Part shown: positions 26,150 to 59,329 of the stretch, piece after piece
Numbering within the stretch: the stretch's first letter is position 1
Layout of the letters: the number at the start of each line of letters is the position of its first letter
DNA from: Octopus vulgaris
Lineage: Eukaryota
Direction of reading: 5' to 3'
DNA length: 64,000 bases
Assembly: GCA_951406725.2 (NCBI GenBank)
Contig: OX597831.1
Span: 6,882,001 to 6,946,000 of the forward strand
Position numbers and translations under genes: made by a program
The notes under the pieces: model-generated
Database searches by the model: none
What the model was told of the DNA's origin: nothing
The model's input: only the letters and a program-made list of their open reading frames with translations

Positions 26150-28450
26150 ATAAAATCTTCTGGGAAGGTAACAGTGATGGAATAGGTGGTGTGGGCATAC
26201 TTCTTGCAGAGAAATAGTTGGATAAGGTCATAGAGGTAATCAGAGTTTGCGAGAGAGCATTTGAGCTCAAGCTAGTCTTGCAGAATAGTATAGCTACAAT
26301 TATATCCCACAAGCAGGCCTACCAAATGAACAGAAGGACCACTTTTATGATATTCTTCTGCAGGCTACTTCAAAGACGAGGGACAATGGCTGGGGATGTT
26401 AGTTAGTTAGTTAGTTAATTTTTTGGCTCAAAAAGCAAAATGCAAGGCCATGTAGGGGGACATGGAGTTATGTACAGGGTGGTGTTCATGTAAAGAGTTC
26501 AGGCCACTTGAGGTCAAGGGAGACTTTGAACCAAGCGGTCGTCGGCATCTTGACCATCTCGTCTGGCAGCTTATTCCACGGATCCGCAACCCGGACAGAG
26601 AAAGCCCCTCTCCTTCGTTCAATGGGCATGTCAGACAGCAGCCCGGTATCTTCTATGGTGTACATGGGGGCCATGGAATTGGTTCCCAAAATGAAGAGGG
26701 AACAAGGCTACTGGAGTTCTGTGATGCAAATAACTTTTTGATCTGCAACACCAACTTCAGGAAGCCAGCCATCCACCTGACAACCCACCTGTCAGGTGAC
26801 TCTGCTAGCCAGATCGATTTCATTCTCACCAGACAGTGGGATGCATGGTTGCTCTTAAATACAAAAACCCTCTCTGGTGAAGAATGTACTCCTTAACATA
26901 GCAACTTTAGAATCCAGGCCAGAAGGGTGCCAAGAAGCAGACCAATCTGGAAAAGAAGGATTTGGAAGTTTAAGGACCCTTCATATGGTCAGAGATTTAG
27001 GGACATCCAAACTGAGAAATTTGATGAGAGGGGGAAAGAGCTACAAACTTGTGACATAGAGGAATAGAGGGCAACTGGGAATTCCTATGAGACAGCTTGC
27101 TGAGTGCCACAGACCAAATCTGTGGCTGGTGCAAAGTCCCTTTCAGGCCTAGGGTAATGTGGTGGTGGAACAATACTGTAGACAGGGCCATTAGAGCAAT
27201 CTAGCAAAAACCAAAGTCTTAGTAAGTCGGAAGGCAGACAAATCCCAAATCCCTTCAGGTAGATGGTCCTGCTCAATCTGTAGAAAAGGCATAGGTAGAA
27301 ACTCCATAAGATATACCTGATGTAAGCTATGGACTCATAAGAGGTACAGAAATATCAAAGGAAGGTTAACTGGGAAGATCGTTTTTGTGTGTGGCAGATG
27401 CACAGGGGCAATAAACACCAAAGAGGTACAGAAAACAGATTCCATCACATTCCAGGGAGAAAAACTAGAAGTAGTTGATAGCTTCCATTACCTAGGTGAC
27501 CAAGTCAGTAGCTAGGGGGAGGGGGATGCTGAGAGCGTAGCTGCTAGAATAAGAATAAAGTTCAGAGAGCTCCTACCTCTGCTGGTAACAAAGGGCCTCT
27601 CACTCAGAATGAAAGGTAGACTGTATGATGTATGTGTGTGAACAGCCATGCTACACAGCAGTGAAACATGGGCTGTGACTGCTGAGGACATGCATAAGCT
27701 TGCAAGAAATGAAACTGGTATTCTCCGCTGGATGTGTAATGTCATTGTGTATGTTCGACAGAGTGTAAGCACACTGAGAGTAAAGATGGGCGTAAGAAGC
27801 ATCAGATGTGGTGTGCAAGAGAGACGACTGTGCTGGTTGGGTCATGTGTTGCATATGGGTGAGGACAGCTGTGTGTAAAAGTGTTACAACCTAACAGTGG
27901 AGGGGACCTGTGGAAGAGGTAGATTCAGGAAGGCATAGGATGAGATGGTGAAGCACAACCTTCAAACGTTGGGCTTCACAAAGGCAATGACAAGCAAGCA
28001 AGACCTTTGGAGATATGCTGTGCTTGAGAAGAGCCAGCAAGCCAGGTGGGATTGTAGCCCTGGCCAATGCCAGTGTTGCATAACCGGTCTGTTTAAAAGC
28101 ACCCTTCAATCATTGAATAATATGCTGTGCTGTTGAGTCAAGCGAAATCGTTGTCATGGCCAATGCCAGTGCCACCTGACTGGCACTTGTGCCAGTGGCA
28201 TGTAAAAAGCACCATTCGAGCGTGGTCGACGCCAGTACCAACTGACTAGCCCCTGTGCCAAAAGCAAGTAAAACGCACCCACTACACGCTTGGAGTGGTT
28301 GGCATTATGAAAGGCATCCAGCTGTAGATACCTTGCCAGATCAGATTGGAGCCTGGTACAGCCTCCTGGCTTGCCAGTCCTCAGTCAAAACGTCCAACCC
28401 ATGCCAGCATGGAAAGCATATGTTAAACGATGACGACGACAATGATGATG
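26150..28450 (+). mobile_element. Degraded, internally deleted RTE-clade LINE with 3'UTR and (GAT)n tail
   Basis: APE endonuclease motifs GVGILLAE, AGD/FNGHV, GGHGIGSQNEEGTRLLEFC and SQIDFIL; late RT motifs LEVVDSFHYLG and MLHSSETW. Many stops; most of the RT core is missing at about 27200. Confidence 0.9.
26398..26617 (-). mobile_element. CR1-type LINE 3' fragment nested in the RTE
   Basis: Encodes FSVRVADPWNKLP..FKVSLD and has a (TAAC)n tail. It splits the RTE GD|FNGHV motif exactly. Confidence 0.85.
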
Positions 28451-28579
28451 ATATATATATATTCTGTAAGTTTAAAACCTTTCATTGGATCTCCATGAAT
28501 CGAACTTTCTTCAATGCAGTTAATCTTACACCCTCTTTTGTATCTACCCCTTTAGATGTTTGGGAATTCTCTGATGTTT

Positions 28580-28667
28580 TTTCGGCTGACGAGTACGAGC
28601 CATCTGTATTCACTGCATTTTTTGTAGCTTATTAAAGATGTCCTCGTACGAAACGATTGTACCGAGA
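28580..28667 (+). ncRNA. Type-I hammerhead ribozyme, intact core
   Basis: UUUCGG-CUGACGA(28586-28592)-GUACGAG..CUCGUAC-GAAA(28650-28653)-CGAUUG-UA-CCGAGA. Six-bp stem I, perfect 7-bp stem II with canonical G10.1-C11.1, predicted cleavage after A28661. Confidence 0.85.
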
Positions 28668-28693
28668 TTTTAATCCATTCTTGTTGCTTTTTT

Positions 28694-28732
<39 letters not shown>

Positions 28733-28855
28733 TCATCATTTAACATCTGCTTTCCATGCTGGCATGGATTAAATGGCTTGACTGGAACTGGTTAGCCAAA
28801 GAGATGCACCAAGTTCCAGTCCGATTTGGCATGGTTTCTATGGCTGGATACCCTT

Positions 28856-35652: not shown

Positions 35653-38600
35653 CAACTTTGCCTTTCATATGTAAAAGGTTAATAAAATAAAGTATCATCC
35701 AAATATTTGGATTGATTTACTTAATTTGTCTTCTTGCAGTATTAAGTTATGACTCTTCAGAGCCTGAGTTCAATTCCTACCAAGATCAACTTTGCCTTTC
35801 ACATGTAAAAGGTTGATAAAATAAAGTATCGTTCAAGTATTTGGATTGGTTTACTTAATTTGTCTTCTTTCTTCAATTGTTAGAAATCATTAGTGAAAGA
35901 TTTGTAGAATGGTTAGAGCATCAGCAAAAATGCCTTTGTGCTATTTTATCTCCTTCCCAATTTATAAGTGGCTTGTGTCAACATAGAATTGTAATTATTT
36001 CTAATTCTGTTGAATTGGGGTTTGTTTTGCAATCTTTCTAGTAACAACAATCAACGACAGGCACTCATTGGGTCCCCCCCCCCCACCTGTCTCTTTATCA
36101 AAATGTTTAAATGATCAACACTTTTTCAATTCAGTTGGGCTGAGATTAATTTCCTATCAGACTTTATTATTCCAGCAAGAATATGAATTGTGGCAAATAT
36201 TCTTAAACTTACAGGATTAACTTTTTGATGTTGCAGGTCTTAGTTGTATCGTTCTTGACATTGTATTGACTTGGTGCTTCACCAATGTTCCGATCAGATT
36301 GGATTTCGGTAGGATTGTTCAAAAGAATCTTATTTCATTGGTAAACTAATAAATTAAATATGCCAAACGATTAATTAAACTCTGGGTCCTTTGTCACTGA
36401 AGGAAAACTATTTACAACACACCTATGAACCATCACAAATACAACAGTTCACTTTTTCGAAATTATTTATTATAAAAGTGATTATTTTTTGCAGCAATAA
36501 CTCTAACTTCAGGGACCAAAACTTTTCCTTCATTTAAAAAATTTTTTTGTATATTCTTCCACTTATTTTTAAAATTATTATTTCCCTAATATTGTAAAGA
36601 TTTACAGACGTTTTAGGAATGAGTTTATAGGACAGAAAGCAGAACTCATTTGTAAATCTTTTCTTGAAGAAGATCTTGCGAGTGAGCGGCATTAACCATT
36701 TCAAACTGACCGGCACCTCCTCACAGACTCACTCGTCACAACAATTTTAAGAATTTCCGCCTCTGTACTTCTTTCTTACTTAGTTATCTCTGTTACTTCA
36801 GGATTCAATATAAAAACAAAATATGGACCATTTCGTGGTAAAATAATTGAATAAATCCCAAATCATAGAAATGGCTATATTTTAATCTCTCTTTTATTAA
36901 TTGAATTCCTTTTAAAAGGTTATTGACGGCATAGAAGATTTACGCCGAAGGTAGTATTTTTGTAGCGGGGACAAAATATGGTGAACACCGATTACTGCAG
37001 TGTCCGCTCAACTTTATTATTGTTTTTCTCTTAAATCTGTCATTTATTGTAAATTGTCATCGCATCTGGTTTAGATTTCTTTAAACAGCTTTTATCTGTT
37101 GTTTAACTAAGTATAAAGATTTCGTTTTATCCTCGGTTACATTACATTATCAATATTTTTGCAGTTTATAATATTAATTGTTTCAATATTAATTGATTTT
37201 GAGACGATTTTGATTCGAATATAAAATATTTCGGTTTTTTAAAAGTTCATATTAAAAGTCTTCTTCGTGGCTAATAAAGAAGTTTGGCGACCAGTTGAAG
37301 TTAAATTCACACTATTTAGGATTTTTAATATATTTGGGAGAGACGTGAACGTCAAAACTTAGGAATTCTTTAAAATAGTCTTGTTTTGTCTGTCCAACTA
37401 AAACTGCATCGAAGCAGTGACGGATTCTTAAATTAAGGTTTTGTGAGAATGTAATGCATAATAAACGAAATCATGTTTCAGATATTGTCTTCTTATTCAG
37501 AGTATATGTGTGAAACAATGCTGATGATGATGATATCCTCCGTTCGTAGCAAAAAAATGTTCACTGGTTTCCAACCCAAGAAATATATTTTTAAAAGTCC
37601 CCACCCATTATTACCGATTTAAAGCCTCCCTCTCTCACAGATCTCTTCTCAACCGAATAACCAACGTTTTTACAGCGACTGGTTATTGATTGAGTAAATT
37701 ACATAACATAATATTATTTTATACTCTTAATTTTTAATACAGAAGCAATTAATGATTATTAAGCGTAAGCAATATTTAATGCCCAACACGCGACGCCCAT
37801 TCTCAAGCGGCAACTGCAGTTTACGTAGCTAAAATGGCTGCACATTTGCTGGGTGAGGTTTTATTCTAATTGACTAAATTATTCATTTTTCTGACCATGG
37901 ATTTTGTCATTTAAACTGTGGAAGTAGTTTCAATAAAGAATAAGCTTTTTTTTTTTTTTACTTATTTATAAAGTTGACTTAACGTTTTTAGTTTTATCTT
38001 TATACACTGTCGTCGGTGGATTAGGTATCATAACCTGTTAGGATATCGATACCAAAAGGATCATGTTTACCAGGTGGCAGATACTACAAGAGTATTTATG
38101 TTATGAATACTTGTCCTACATTTGGTAAATTTGGCTGTAAAATATTTTTCAGTTATCAGAATTATCAAATTAACGGGAAGAAAGTTTGTTTCCTCACTAA
38201 TTCATACGAATACAGACGTCCACGCATTGATTAACTCGAGTATTGAATCTTAAGTTAGCACTGATGAAGTTTAATATCACAAAATTACTCCGAAAGCTCT
38301 AAATAATGTTAGCCGTATACACATTTCAGGTAGCTGAATTTTTGTCTCACTAAATCCTAAATATTTCGTAAAAATTTGATATGCAATGAGCATTAGATAG
38401 AGACTTATGCAACTAAGAAATAGAGCGATATACTGACACAGACAAGCAGAAAGTTTGGTGCGAATGGGTGCTAGGTGTAGCAGGTACTGACTGTGAGTAA
38501 CGGAAGGAGTGATGGATTTAGGCATAAGAAAAAGCAGGCTACAGGTTTTGGCATCAAAATCCACAGGGGGTCTTAGTGAATAAGTATAATATTAAAAAAA

Positions 38601-40312: not shown

Positions 40313-40631
40313 GACATGATCTGTGTCCTTATATTTTGAAACAAGGGAATCTAGCACCCCAACTCAGCTCAAAACAACACCTGTGTATTGCAATTTCCGG
40401 GTTATTTCCCTTCATCAGCACAGAATAATCGTTCGGCTAGAGGTGCGGCTGCCAAATTCCCATTTGAAATATATAGTTTTCAAAGTGACAACTAATCACT
40501 GATCTATAAATTAGAAAACTACTATTTTTAAATCTCACAACATGAGATATTCAGCAACAGTACTTTGTGGTAAAGATTGAGTGAGGGTGCTAGATTCCCT
40601 TGTTTGAAAATATAAGGACACAGATCATGTC
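40313..40631. mobile_element. Inverted-repeat cassette enclosing the hammerhead (Penelope pseudo-LTR-like)
   Basis: 47-bp arms at 40313-40359 and 40585-40631 with one mismatch. Confidence 0.65.
40381..40423 (-). ncRNA. Minimal type-I hammerhead ribozyme
   Basis: Minus strand: CUGUG-CUGAUGA-A-GGG-AAAUAA-CCC-G-GAAA-UUGCAA-UA-CACAG. Five-bp stem I, palindromic stem III (AUUGCAAU). Confidence 0.8.
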
Positions 40632-45190: not shown

Positions 45191-45562
45191 TTATATATAT
45201 ATATATAGGCACATGTACATGGGTGTGCGGGTGTGCATGTGTAGGTATGGACATGCACGCTTACGCACTTACTATGAACATTTTTACTCCCTTGCCTCAC
45301 TTAGCGGTCATTCTAATAGCTCTTTTGTCTTAATAATAGTCAATCATACAGCAATTTTCCTTTGTTATAACGGTCATTTTCATAGCATTTTTTTCAATGG
45401 CCCGATAGCTGAAGAGATGCTGGCATGGGTTTCAACCCCAACATCCGAAACTCAGAGTTTTATCATGGCTACTGAATAATTGTCACATATTATATTTACA
45501 GATATATATATATATATATATATATATACGTATATACATACATACATATGTATGTATGTATA

Positions 45563-46489: not shown

Positions 46490-47322
46490 ATAATAATAAT
46501 AATAATAATAATTGTGTACAGTGCTCAGGTGCACTACAACTCATCTAAAGTGTATATATAATCAGGTGTAGTTTCGGCGGATTTCGGAAAGCATGAGGGC
46601 CTTAAAAGATGCAGTGTCATGGCAGTCAACAACTGACGCAGGCAGTTTATTCCATGCTTCAGCAACTCTGAGCGTGAAAAAATGTTTCCGAAAGTCATGG
46701 GAGCTGTATTGTTTTCTGACTTTGTAGGCATGTCCACGTGTGTTAGACACATGGAGATCAAAAAGGTGTTCAGTGTTGTTGTTGGTGAGGTGGTTGATAA
46801 CTTTGTGGGTGTTTACCAAGTCCGTCGCCAGATGCCGGAGCTTCAGTGAATCCATGCCCAGGGAAACAAGGCGCTCAGAATATGGTAGGTGTCTGATGGA
46901 GGGTATGCGTTTGGTTGCACGTCTCTGGACAGATTCCAGGAGGTCAATGTTCTGTGCAAGATAGGGGTTCCAAACTGATGATGCGAATTCCAAGTGTGGT
47001 CGTACCATAGCTGTATACAGTTTTAAATAGATGGCTGGAGAGCGGCTAACAAAAGACCTGCTGAGTGATGCCAAGACACCCTCGGCCTTCCTGACAATCT
47101 TAGAGATATGCTTTGACCAACGCAAATCACTGCTGACAGTGATGCCTAGGTCACGCTCGCAAGAGGATTTCTTGATATCAGTGTTGTGGAGGGAGTAAGT
47201 GAACGCAGGGTTTTTTCTCCCAAAATGCATGGTGGTACACTTGTCCACAGCCAGTTTCAGTTGCCAGTCTGTGATCCATTGCTGCATTGTGTCTAGGTCT
47301 GATTGCAGGAAAGAGTTATCAT
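46490..47322 (-). mobile_element. 5'-truncated CR1-type LINE with open C-terminal RT frame
   Basis: LQSDLD..WQLKLAVDKC..ERDLGI..VRPHLEFASSVWNPY..LESVQRRATK..TRGH..FFTLRVAEAWNKLP, stop at 46562-46564, short 3'UTR and (ATT)n tail. Confidence 0.93.
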
Positions 47323-47644
47323 CCTCATCATTAACCATTTTCGTCTGTTTTTCCATGCTGGGTTAGGCTACAGCACCTCAGATTTTTGCTGTCTCTTCTC
47401 ATCTGTTATACACCGCAACAGAAAAAAAGCACCACTCCTTGCTGTTGTGTATATTATGCGTTTGGCATGGTTTTTATGAGCAGATGGTCTTCCTATTACC
47501 AGTCAGTTTACCATACAGAATGAGAGCATTTTATCATGTAACCAACCCTAGAGAAGTCCCCTGTAGCAGGACTACAGATTCCTCTCTACCCTACAACTAC
47601 TTTAATTCAGATATACTCTTTTCAAGATTGGCTGCCTCTGCTGT

Positions 47645-57160: not shown

Positions 57161-59329
57161 CTGACTCCTTGCTAATTAGGCTTACCTACTGCAGCCACCA
57201 TGCGCTCGGGCACATGTTCTGCGATTCTTCTTTACCTTGATTTTCTTTCATCTTAATGATGTGTGTGAGTGAATGTGCATCTCTCTCTATTTCTCCCTCT
57301 CTGTTATATATGTGTGTGTGTGTGTGTGTGCATGCGTTAGTGTGTGCGTATGCAAGCTTAATTTTTTTAATTTTCTTTTTAATATTTCAATAACACGATG
57401 CCTTTCTCTCTCTCCTTCTCTCTATCTCTGTCTCTTATACACACACACATAATGTATATACACATACAACGACAATTATACACACTTGTTTGTGTATACA
57501 CAAATATATTCAATTACACCCATATATAACTACATATGTGTGTAATATAATATGTGCATGTATACACACACACACATACACACACGTGTGTGAGCGAGTA
57601 GAATTGTCACCAAACATCTCCCACTCATTTTATCATCACACTTCTGTCAATTTTTGGAAGAATAGGACTGACAAATTTGAACACACACACACCTACTATA
57701 TACTACTACAATCTATCTTAGTAACAACTATTCATACATCCTCCCCCTCTCGTCTGCTCTCTGCTTCTCTCTTCTCTCTCCTTTCTGCCTGTTCTATGGT
57801 ACCGATGCATCGACATATATGGATATAATAGACCTGGCATTGGATTAAAATCTCGGAAGAACATATGAATACGAACCACTTCTTGAATAAATAAATAGCT
57901 AGCTCTAGTTTACAACCCAGACAACCTGTAGATCTCAACATATAATTTTTTTCTCGTTTTGTCTCCCCGATGGCTAGAATGGTCCATATTTTTGTCCTTC
58001 ATAAATTCAGCAACTTATCCTCTCAATTTTAACAGGTCTTGTAGAAAGGCATAAACATCACACATTCTCATCTCCCCACTTTGGAAAATAAATCTGAAAA
58101 ACTGAGGCAATGTAGTAATTTGTGTATTTTTAAAGTTTGTAATCTTCAAGAAATAACTTCTTGGCAAGATGGGGGTCTATCAAGATGTTTTGGGGTCTTG
58201 TTTGAAGCCATTTTCATTTTACTAATTCTATTAATAATGTCCTTGAGAAATATATGAATGTCACAACTTAGCTTTTCTTAAACCCTGTGTGTGTCTGTGT
58301 GTCCATAGCTGCGTGGTTAACAAGTTTGCTTCCTAATTATGTGGTTTTTGGTTCAATCTCAGTGTATGACATCTTGGGTAAGTATCTTCTACTATAGTTC
58401 CAGGTTGACCAAAGCCTTGTGAATGGAGTCGATAAATGGAAACTGAAGAGGCGTGTCAAATATGTGTGTGTGTGTGTGTTAGTCTCTTCTCTTGATATTG
58501 TGTAAATTGTAGTTGTAAACGAGTATAACCATCATACAAGCAGTTTCTTTCATTTCCAATTTTCTATGTAAACATGTCTGGCTATGGGCATCTATTACCT
58601 TACTTGGGAACTGCAGAGCTTGGCAACAGAAAGTGCATCTGGTTATAGAAAATCTGCCTCAGTTTATTGTTTAATTCATACAAACATGGAAAAGTGGATA
58701 TTAAAATGATGAATGATTCTCTCTCTCTCTGCACCTCCTACAGATCAGATTTCTCTTTCTCTTCTTCTACTAAATGTGGATTGTCATGCAAACTCTCTAC
58801 AAGAACCTGCTCTGCCCCACTGTAGTTTTAATCCCTCATCCCCGAGTATGAAGCTGACCCTCTCACCTCCCCTGGGAGTCTTAGTTCTGTGAGTTGCATG
58901 GCAACCTCAATAGTGCTGCTGGCATGTAAAACGGTTGGCATTAGAAAGGGCATCTGGCTGTAGAAACCACGCTAAAGTAGACAGAAGCATGATGCAGTCC
59001 CTGGGCACATTGGATCCTGACAAACCATCTGATTCATGCAAACATGGAGCATGAACATTAAGTGATGGTGGTGATGACGACCAAGGGTGGGGACACCACA
59101 CCAATCCAACTGTTCAGATTGCGATGCAAGATTTAAGCAAAGCCACAGAACACAAGGAGAATAATGATGGGTTATATTAACAATCAGTAAATACAAACAA
59201 TTCATTAAACGAGGCTAAATTAGTTTAGTGTAATGAGATGCTAACGAGATCAGATGTGTTGTCCTTTGTGAATCGTTTGTATTTCACTTGTTCAATTCAT
59301 AGGACTTTTTGGGAAATTCAACCTAATTC

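Follow-up and report, generated by a model that had tools for sequence, protein, structure and literature searches.

A type I hammerhead in Octopus vulgaris lies in the 3' end of a truncated Penelope-like element of the Hydra clade and is predicted to cleave only as a dimer

A hammerhead motif at positions 28580-28667 of a 64,000-nt stretch of Octopus vulgaris DNA (contig OX597831.1; the whole stretch is referred to hereafter as the window) raises the question of whether it is a self-cleaving unit in its own right or a piece of a larger element, and of what a single copy at this site is likely to do. We assign a probability of about 0.8 to the following reading: the motif belongs to a Penelope-like element (PLE) of the Hydra clade, of which only the 3' end, truncated on its 5' side, lies here in (TA)n, its hammerhead is predicted to act only as a dimer, and the solo copy is likely to be a silent passenger. 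The parts of the motif, all on the + strand, are as follows.

28580..28667, +: type I hammerhead ribozyme with a predicted cut 3' of A28661 (descriptor, fold, covariation across subfamilies)
28580-28585/28662-28667, +: stem I, 6 bp including one G-U (descriptor scan)
28586..28592, +: core CUGANGA (C3-A9), reading CTGACGA, unchanged in 34/34 sister copies and 19/19 aligned copies
28593-28599/28643-28649, +: stem II, 7 bp, closing a 43-nt loop (descriptor scan, fold)
28601-28605/28636-28640, +: 5-bp extension of stem II, CATCT/AGATG, within loop II
28613-28617/28623-28627, +: inner hairpin of loop II, 87% paired across 19 copies
28631..28636, +: ATTAAA in loop II, a hexamer resembling a poly(A) signal, 25 nt ahead of the cut
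28650-28653, +: GAAA of the core
28653..28660, +: palindromic stem III, ACGATTGT, predicted dimer interface (sister-copy counts, duplex energies)

The initial annotation had described an intact core (CUGACGA, GAAA and GUA), and all three elements were found in place in the sequence and by the descriptor scan, which also recovered the claimed stem I, the perfect 7-bp stem II and its CAUCU/AGAUG extension; A17 of the hammerhead is 28661, in agreement with the cut predicted 3' of that residue. A strict type I descriptor (stem I of at least 6 bp and stem II of at least 7 bp) had a single match in the 64-kb window and none in 60/60 dinucleotide shuffles. The predicted fold had a z value of -2.35 (3/200 shuffles equally good), with monomer pair probabilities of 0.81-1.0 for stems I and II and of at most 0.02 for stem III. 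No Rfam hammerhead model matched, either at the gathering score or at E values up to 10, and this miss is likely to be due to the 43-nt loop II; to our knowledge, a match to Rfam is no defining feature of hammerhead chemistry. The order CUGANGA, GAAA and NUH, together with helices I and II and their covariation, identifies the motif from its letters as a type I hammerhead for which self-cleavage is predicted, although a helix III stable in the monomer was not found. The description "apparently intact" therefore holds for the core and for stems I and II, but not for stem III, which is predicted to be unstable in the monomer and has a palindrome weaker than that of the family majority.

Stem III was indeed near-palindromic, as previously claimed. 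Among 34 sister copies, 23 carry the majority form ACGATCGT, 8 the window variant ACGATTGT, with its G-U pair, and 3 other forms; the window variant was also present at L059-L061. Duplex energies of -10.0, -5.8 and -6.4 kcal/mol were predicted for ACGATCGT, ACGATTGT and ACAATTGT, respectively, and the shift from G-C to A-U via G-U seen across copies leaves the palindrome intact; it is broken in two of 19 aligned copies (ACAACTGT, predicted duplex -1.0 kcal/mol). In the monomer, stem III was predicted at +2.4 kcal/mol, and two copies cofolded as a double hammerhead at -56.2 kcal/mol, versus 2 x -25.1 (-50.2) kcal/mol. On these energies, cleavage is predicted only as a dimer, with stem III pairing between two copies. 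Dimer action with low activity in vitro has been published for such type I motifs (PMC4209133; PMC7229834), PLE hammerheads have been described as cutting poorly in vitro (PMC4209133), and the hammerhead of the anole element was reported to need its protein (PMC11167929). No second copy of this family's hammerhead was found in the 64-kb window and, since the window copy is predicted to cut only with a second copy, it is likely to be a silent passenger.

The sequence carrying the hammerhead, hereafter the cassette, and its surroundings are arranged as follows.

26450..28450, +: old decayed non-LTR retrotransposon with endonuclease and RT remnants, 3'UTR and (GAT)n tail (frames, relatives); 5' limit approximate; a neighbour, not part of the element
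28451..28461, no strand: left remnant of the (TA)n target, 11 nt (sequence)
28462..28698, +: 5'-truncated 3' end (end of the 3'UTR/pLTR) of a young Hydra-clade PLE (sister matches, continuity with ORF-bearing copies)
28696..28730, no strand: 17.5 units of the (TA)n target, on the right side (sequence)
28731..28855, -: short 3' end from a retrotransposon of the left flank's type, tail-to-tail with it and 77% alike to its 3' end over 124 nt; a neighbour

The cassette is 235 nt long (28462-28696) and stops at the first 3' end of its family, CCT|AT, the AT being common to element and target; A28554 is a private letter of this copy. The initial annotation had placed it between (TA)n tracts, which are present on both sides, and between two tail-to-tail RTE 3' ends. 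The tail-to-tail arrangement stood, as both flanks are 3' ends of one non-LTR retrotransposon type with (GAT)n tails; the clade name RTE is our assumption from sequence motifs, and a Pfam search with the C-terminal piece of the flanking retrotransposon returned nothing. The endonuclease and RT frames of the left flank are decayed, and this flank is just 85-88% alike to its best 39 relatives; the element thus most likely inserted late, into a TA tract flanked by a tail-to-tail pair of retrotransposon ends of greater age. A link of the RTE-like flanks to the ribozyme was ruled out, since the flanks of sister copies are unrelated, and the flanks are incidental to the hammerhead, as older neighbours of the TA target. 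As to insertion polymorphism, the contigs of four sequencing runs were broken by repeats and none spans the site.

A comparison of the cassette with the genome gave 41 near-full-length matches with 97-100% identity (40 of 1013 candidates scored); exact searches of the genome found a 32-nt piece of the 5' arm 286 times and a 28-nt piece from behind the cut 499 times (control 0 in each case). In sister copies, the sequence upstream of the cassette continues as 3'UTR for about 1.1 kb and then enters a GIY-YIG frame, with which full-length copies were retrieved, and the cassette sequence is continuous with the ORF-bearing copies L031, L053, L055 and L057. The full-length copies contain a single RT and GIY-YIG ORF (1072 aa in L053 and 1071 aa in L054), and the hammerhead region lies both 5' and 3' of the ORF in L053, where the 5' copy is partial, and in L054, the 3' end of which is lost to an assembly gap. 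The protein has YRDD in the RT, a CxCX5C linker and, at its C-terminus, a GIY-YIG domain (PF01541, 23.4 bits against a cutoff of 22.6, on the C-terminal 131 aa); Pfam returned 0 families for the whole protein and only noise for the RT half. L053 contains ADKTG (DKT for DKG) and, near the N-terminus, RWR, which reads RWK in L059-L061. By eye, CxxC and CxH flank the catalytic E and N of the endonuclease when set against the supplementary rows of PMC8557442, and the conserved cysteine pair inside the GIY-YIG core is absent (no CCHH).

The Hydra clade was defined by Craig et al. (2021) through these protein features (PMC8557442). The (TA)n targets that are a trait of this clade are present in the family, as are the hallmarks of EN+ PLEs, namely a single RT and GIY-YIG ORF, pLTRs with a hammerhead, inverted truncated arms and a tail. 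Naiad, Neptune and Nematis were excluded: there is no N-terminal EN (Naiad) and no CX2-5CxxC linker with CCHH. Its sequence continuity, with the clade assigned by protein motifs, identifies the cassette as a truncated copy, reduced to the 3' end, of a coding PLE of the Hydra clade and not as a stand-alone unit. Relatives elsewhere are of about 700 aa and 33-40% identical (22/23 matches), one homologue being named from Octopus sinensis; the present family has, in addition, two Asn-rich inserts, of about 140 aa and about 220 aa. In the Hydra-type ORF of L053 (3957-7175) and of L059-L061, these inserts (23% and 35% Asn) change fast and keep the frame; one follows the RT and the other precedes the zinc linker. 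In L012 (1094-1546), the 3'UTR contains, just 5' of the hammerhead, a direct repeat with units of about 170-210 nt that have diverged to about 76% likeness.

This kind of element is already known, while the family itself is absent from the literature searched, in which, as judged from the listings, no paper on it was found. Hammerheads in Hydra PLEs, octopus included, have been published (PMC8557442), and the family Hydra-1_Obim from Octopus bimaculoides is listed with (TA)n targets and a hammerhead in the supplement to that paper. Our family shares with the Hydra clade and Hydra-1_Obim the one RT and C-terminal GIY-YIG ORF with RW(K/R), DKT, CxCX5C, CxxC and CxH and, with the clade as described there, insertion in (TA)n, a type I hammerhead close to the 3' end, arms that are inverted and 5'-truncated, and a one-ended tail (PMC8557442). 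However, its hammerhead sequence differs from that of Hydra-1_Obim, loop II measures 43-46 nt rather than the 4-9 nt of five Hydra rows, the protein has 950-1072 aa with the two Asn-rich inserts rather than about 700 aa, and the tail is of 118 nt rather than 30-40 nt (PMC8557442). The unit, at 4.2-4.7 kb from hammerhead to hammerhead, also exceeds the typical but non-diagnostic Hydra size of <3 kb (PMC8557442), because of the Asn-rich inserts and the 1.3-kb 3'UTR. With published metazoan type I motifs, the octopus hammerhead shares a long helix II (7 bp), a helix III that is short and palindromic, an occurrence mostly as dispersed single motifs left by truncated PLEs, a dimer model and the proposal of a circle; unlike those motifs, it lacks an extra nucleotide between A9 and helix II and has a 6-bp helix I and a loop II that is long and structured and contains a poly(A)-like hexamer. 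Near Hydra elements, hammerheads belonging to two further families, likewise with long arms on stem II and a palindrome as stem III, were seen at L064:6233 (-) and L066:2708 (-).

Among the 34 best non-self copies, divergence from the majority averages 0.8%, and the core is intact in all of them; they are the top-scoring copies, hence biased to the young. The window copy departs from this majority at 4/235 letters. The annotated contrast between a CpG-rich motif and a CpG-poor region was borne out (7 CpGs in 88 nt; o/e 1.8, against 0.48 in the window and 0.16-0.34 in the flanks). Two explanations had been offered, youth or constraint: the divergence of 0.8% indicates that the CpGs reflect youth, whereas a constraint on the CpGs themselves is contradicted by older subfamilies (endonuclease identity 69-88%), which keep the fold with only 1-2 CpGs. 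We instead see the constraint as acting on the structure of the hammerhead, as suggested by compensatory changes across subfamilies. In 19 aligned copies, all catalytic core letters are invariant, 95.4% of 475 cells are paired (slid controls 33-50%), five pairs have changed on both sides, and the stem II pairs and two of the extension pairs are 100% paired. These copies fall in two main clades of related subfamilies, so the independent covariation events are few. Between the clades, likeness is 76-85% in the ribozyme arms and 75-82% in the tail, against about 40% at 41-150 nt upstream of the core.

The copies have two fixed 3' ends, at CCT|AT 35 nt behind the cut (end 1) or 118 nt further (end 2), each followed by (TA)n and with a small hairpin a few bases behind it, the one at end 2 being weak; the older subfamilies have the same two ends. 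In all 19 two-armed loci (19/19, among 40 fetched), one arm stops at end 1 and the other is tailed, in 16 cases exactly at end 2, and the arms within a locus differ by 0.36 per 115 nt, versus 2.0 to other copies (11 loci). The 5' ends, by contrast with these fixed ends, are scattered: 58/59 copies extend at least 18 nt upstream of the cut (sample: the 36, among the first 100 of the 499 places, that had no exact 5'-arm match, plus eight paired loci). A 5' end fixed at the cut site was ruled out, as just 1/59 copies stops there. The template would thus have been whole at the ribozyme, uncut or re-joined, and, with 5' ends not piled up at the cut, there is no genomic trace of cleavage in vivo. 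At L090 and L091, about 48 kb apart on one contig, an identical rearranged 5' junction was observed, likely reflecting segmental duplication of one insertion.

In five full-length copies, the 5' pLTR begins 55 to >800 nt upstream of the cut. The 5' and 3' pLTRs of three elements differ at 2, 1 and 0 positions per 228 nt, and the nearest other elements at 4-6. To judge from the alignments, near-identical pLTRs of variable length would fit a circle, as proposed by Cervera and de la Pena, and are also compatible with tandem read-through or template jumps. By analogy, the two 3' ends would fit the two internal RT starts shown for Poseidon_Ac, the green anole element of Frangieh et al. (2024), with which the octopus family shares AT-rich targets and would share two internal RT starts defining the tail and a template uncut at the ribozyme (PMC11167929). 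Poseidon_Ac belongs to another clade, and its hammerhead overlaps the start codon with RT starts inside the ORF, whereas in the octopus element the cut and the two ends all lie upstream of the ATG, the cut by about 210 nt and the ends by about 55-175 nt. A 5'UTR intron across the ribozyme (donor GTAAGT at 28466, acceptor an AG ahead of the ATG) was rejected, the donor being in place in 3/18 copies and the acceptor varying. Four runs that we guessed to be RNA, available as contigs, cover mainly the pLTR of a full-length copy, with one 296-nt contig over the cut, and showed no A tail among 17 of 20 loose ends and no intron-like joint, a pattern that is neutral as to expression.

The read-through of the cut in 58/59 copies, with no pile-up, is what would be expected if the pLTR had retained the fold for a structural or protein-binding role, with little or no cleavage in vivo and uncut read-through RNA as the template; an anole PLE with a dead ribozyme inserted equally well in vitro, with no read ends at the cut (PMC11167929). 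We nevertheless hold this explanation to be doubtful, since the catalytic core is invariant in 19/19 copies despite the low likeness further upstream, and near-identical pLTRs with such variable upstream lengths fit a circle.

The preferred reading, a truncated Hydra-clade PLE with a hammerhead cutting as a dimer, has published precedent (PMC4209133, PMC11167929, PMC8557442), and would involve the following steps. The two hammerheads of a full-length pLTR-ORF-pLTR transcript, separated by 4.2-4.7 kb, would pair through the palindromic stem III, perhaps assisted by the element's protein, and the paired hammerheads would excise a unit-length RNA. Once single, in an RNA re-joined as a circle or left uncut, the ribozyme would be off. 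The GIY-YIG nuclease would cut (TA)n, and the RT would begin at end 1 or end 2, beside the small hairpins, copy back across the intact ribozyme and halt at a random point. For the window copy, the RT may have started at end 1 and halted after about 235 nt. Against this reading stand the lack of a pile-up of 5' ends at the cut, the derivation of the covariation from few related subfamilies, the palindrome broken in 2/19 copies, and the published findings that the anole element could insert in vitro without its ribozyme and that PLE hammerheads cleave poorly in vitro (PMC11167929, PMC4209133).

The hexamer in loop II suggests a further function for the fold. AATAAA and ATTAAA are the two strongest poly(A) signals, and a hexamer followed by a downstream U/GU-rich run is the layout of a poly(A) site; in the cassette such a run follows at 28668-28695, and A(A/T)TAAA lies 25-26 nt before the cut in 19/19 aligned copies. 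If the hexamer were a working signal directing host cleavage and polyadenylation onto the ribozyme's cut, one RNA fold would toggle between two fates, an mRNA that is polyadenylated and translated and a template that has cut itself, become circular and serves retrotransposition. We consider this improbable: genomic copies with an A run after the cut numbered 0, loop II is about 70% conserved anyway, the sequence is AT-rich, and the change of hexamer is a single switch event. The hexamer is absent from five published Hydra loops (PMC8557442), and the literature searched, as judged from the listings, contained no paper on a poly(A) hexamer in a PLE hammerhead.

Animal non-LTR retrozymes have a type I hammerhead with dimer dependence in some species (PMC7229834; bioRxiv 10.64898/2026.07.22.740005), and the cassette, being short, young and dispersed with such a hammerhead, might be taken for a non-autonomous retrozyme or SINE-like unit amplifying itself as a small circular RNA, the more so as animal retrozymes have been proposed to derive from pLTRs (bioRxiv 10.64898/2026.07.22.740005). 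However, retrozymes are non-coding tandem units of 170-400 nt (PMC7229834), whereas the cassette derives from a coding element, as a fragment without a fixed unit; its 5' end is not fixed, no head-to-tail monomers were found in 30 + 40 loci, and the upstream sequence runs into the 3'UTR and ORF of a coding element, which makes this explanation very improbable. Co-option of the window copy by the host, to cut a host transcript, would agree with the intact core but is scarcely credible, as the core is equally intact in 34/34 sisters, host selection is not needed for a copy this close to its majority, stem III is weak in the monomer with no partner within the window, and none of the 11 frames of at least 150 aa was recognised as coding for a host protein.

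The single locus is of little weight, as one among several hundred truncated ends. The family is of modest use: being young, with full-length open ORFs, a clean natural series of palindromes (G-C, G-U and A-U) and two sharp 3' ends separated by 118 nt, it lends itself well to asking what PLE hammerheads do, be it dimer cutting, circles or nothing.

Other motifs were observed in the window. A hammerhead-like motif of another family lies at 45404-45466 (+), with its core at 45409, a 5-bp stem I, a bulged stem II and a fold z of -0.2, and a minimal one at 40380-40425 (-), with a 6-bp stem I, a 3-bp stem II and a palindromic stem III (ATTGCAAT), is likely another Penelope end. A possible decayed hammerhead core with a 7-bp stem I, at 38255-38310 (+), is weak. 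A 16-nt exact match to the sequence just behind the cut, at 57841-57856 (-) and with no ribozyme upstream, may be due to chance (E 0.012). Finally, a 266-aa frame at 46562-47362 (-) resembles the C-terminal part of a non-LTR retrotransposon RT, which we take to be CR1/L2-like.
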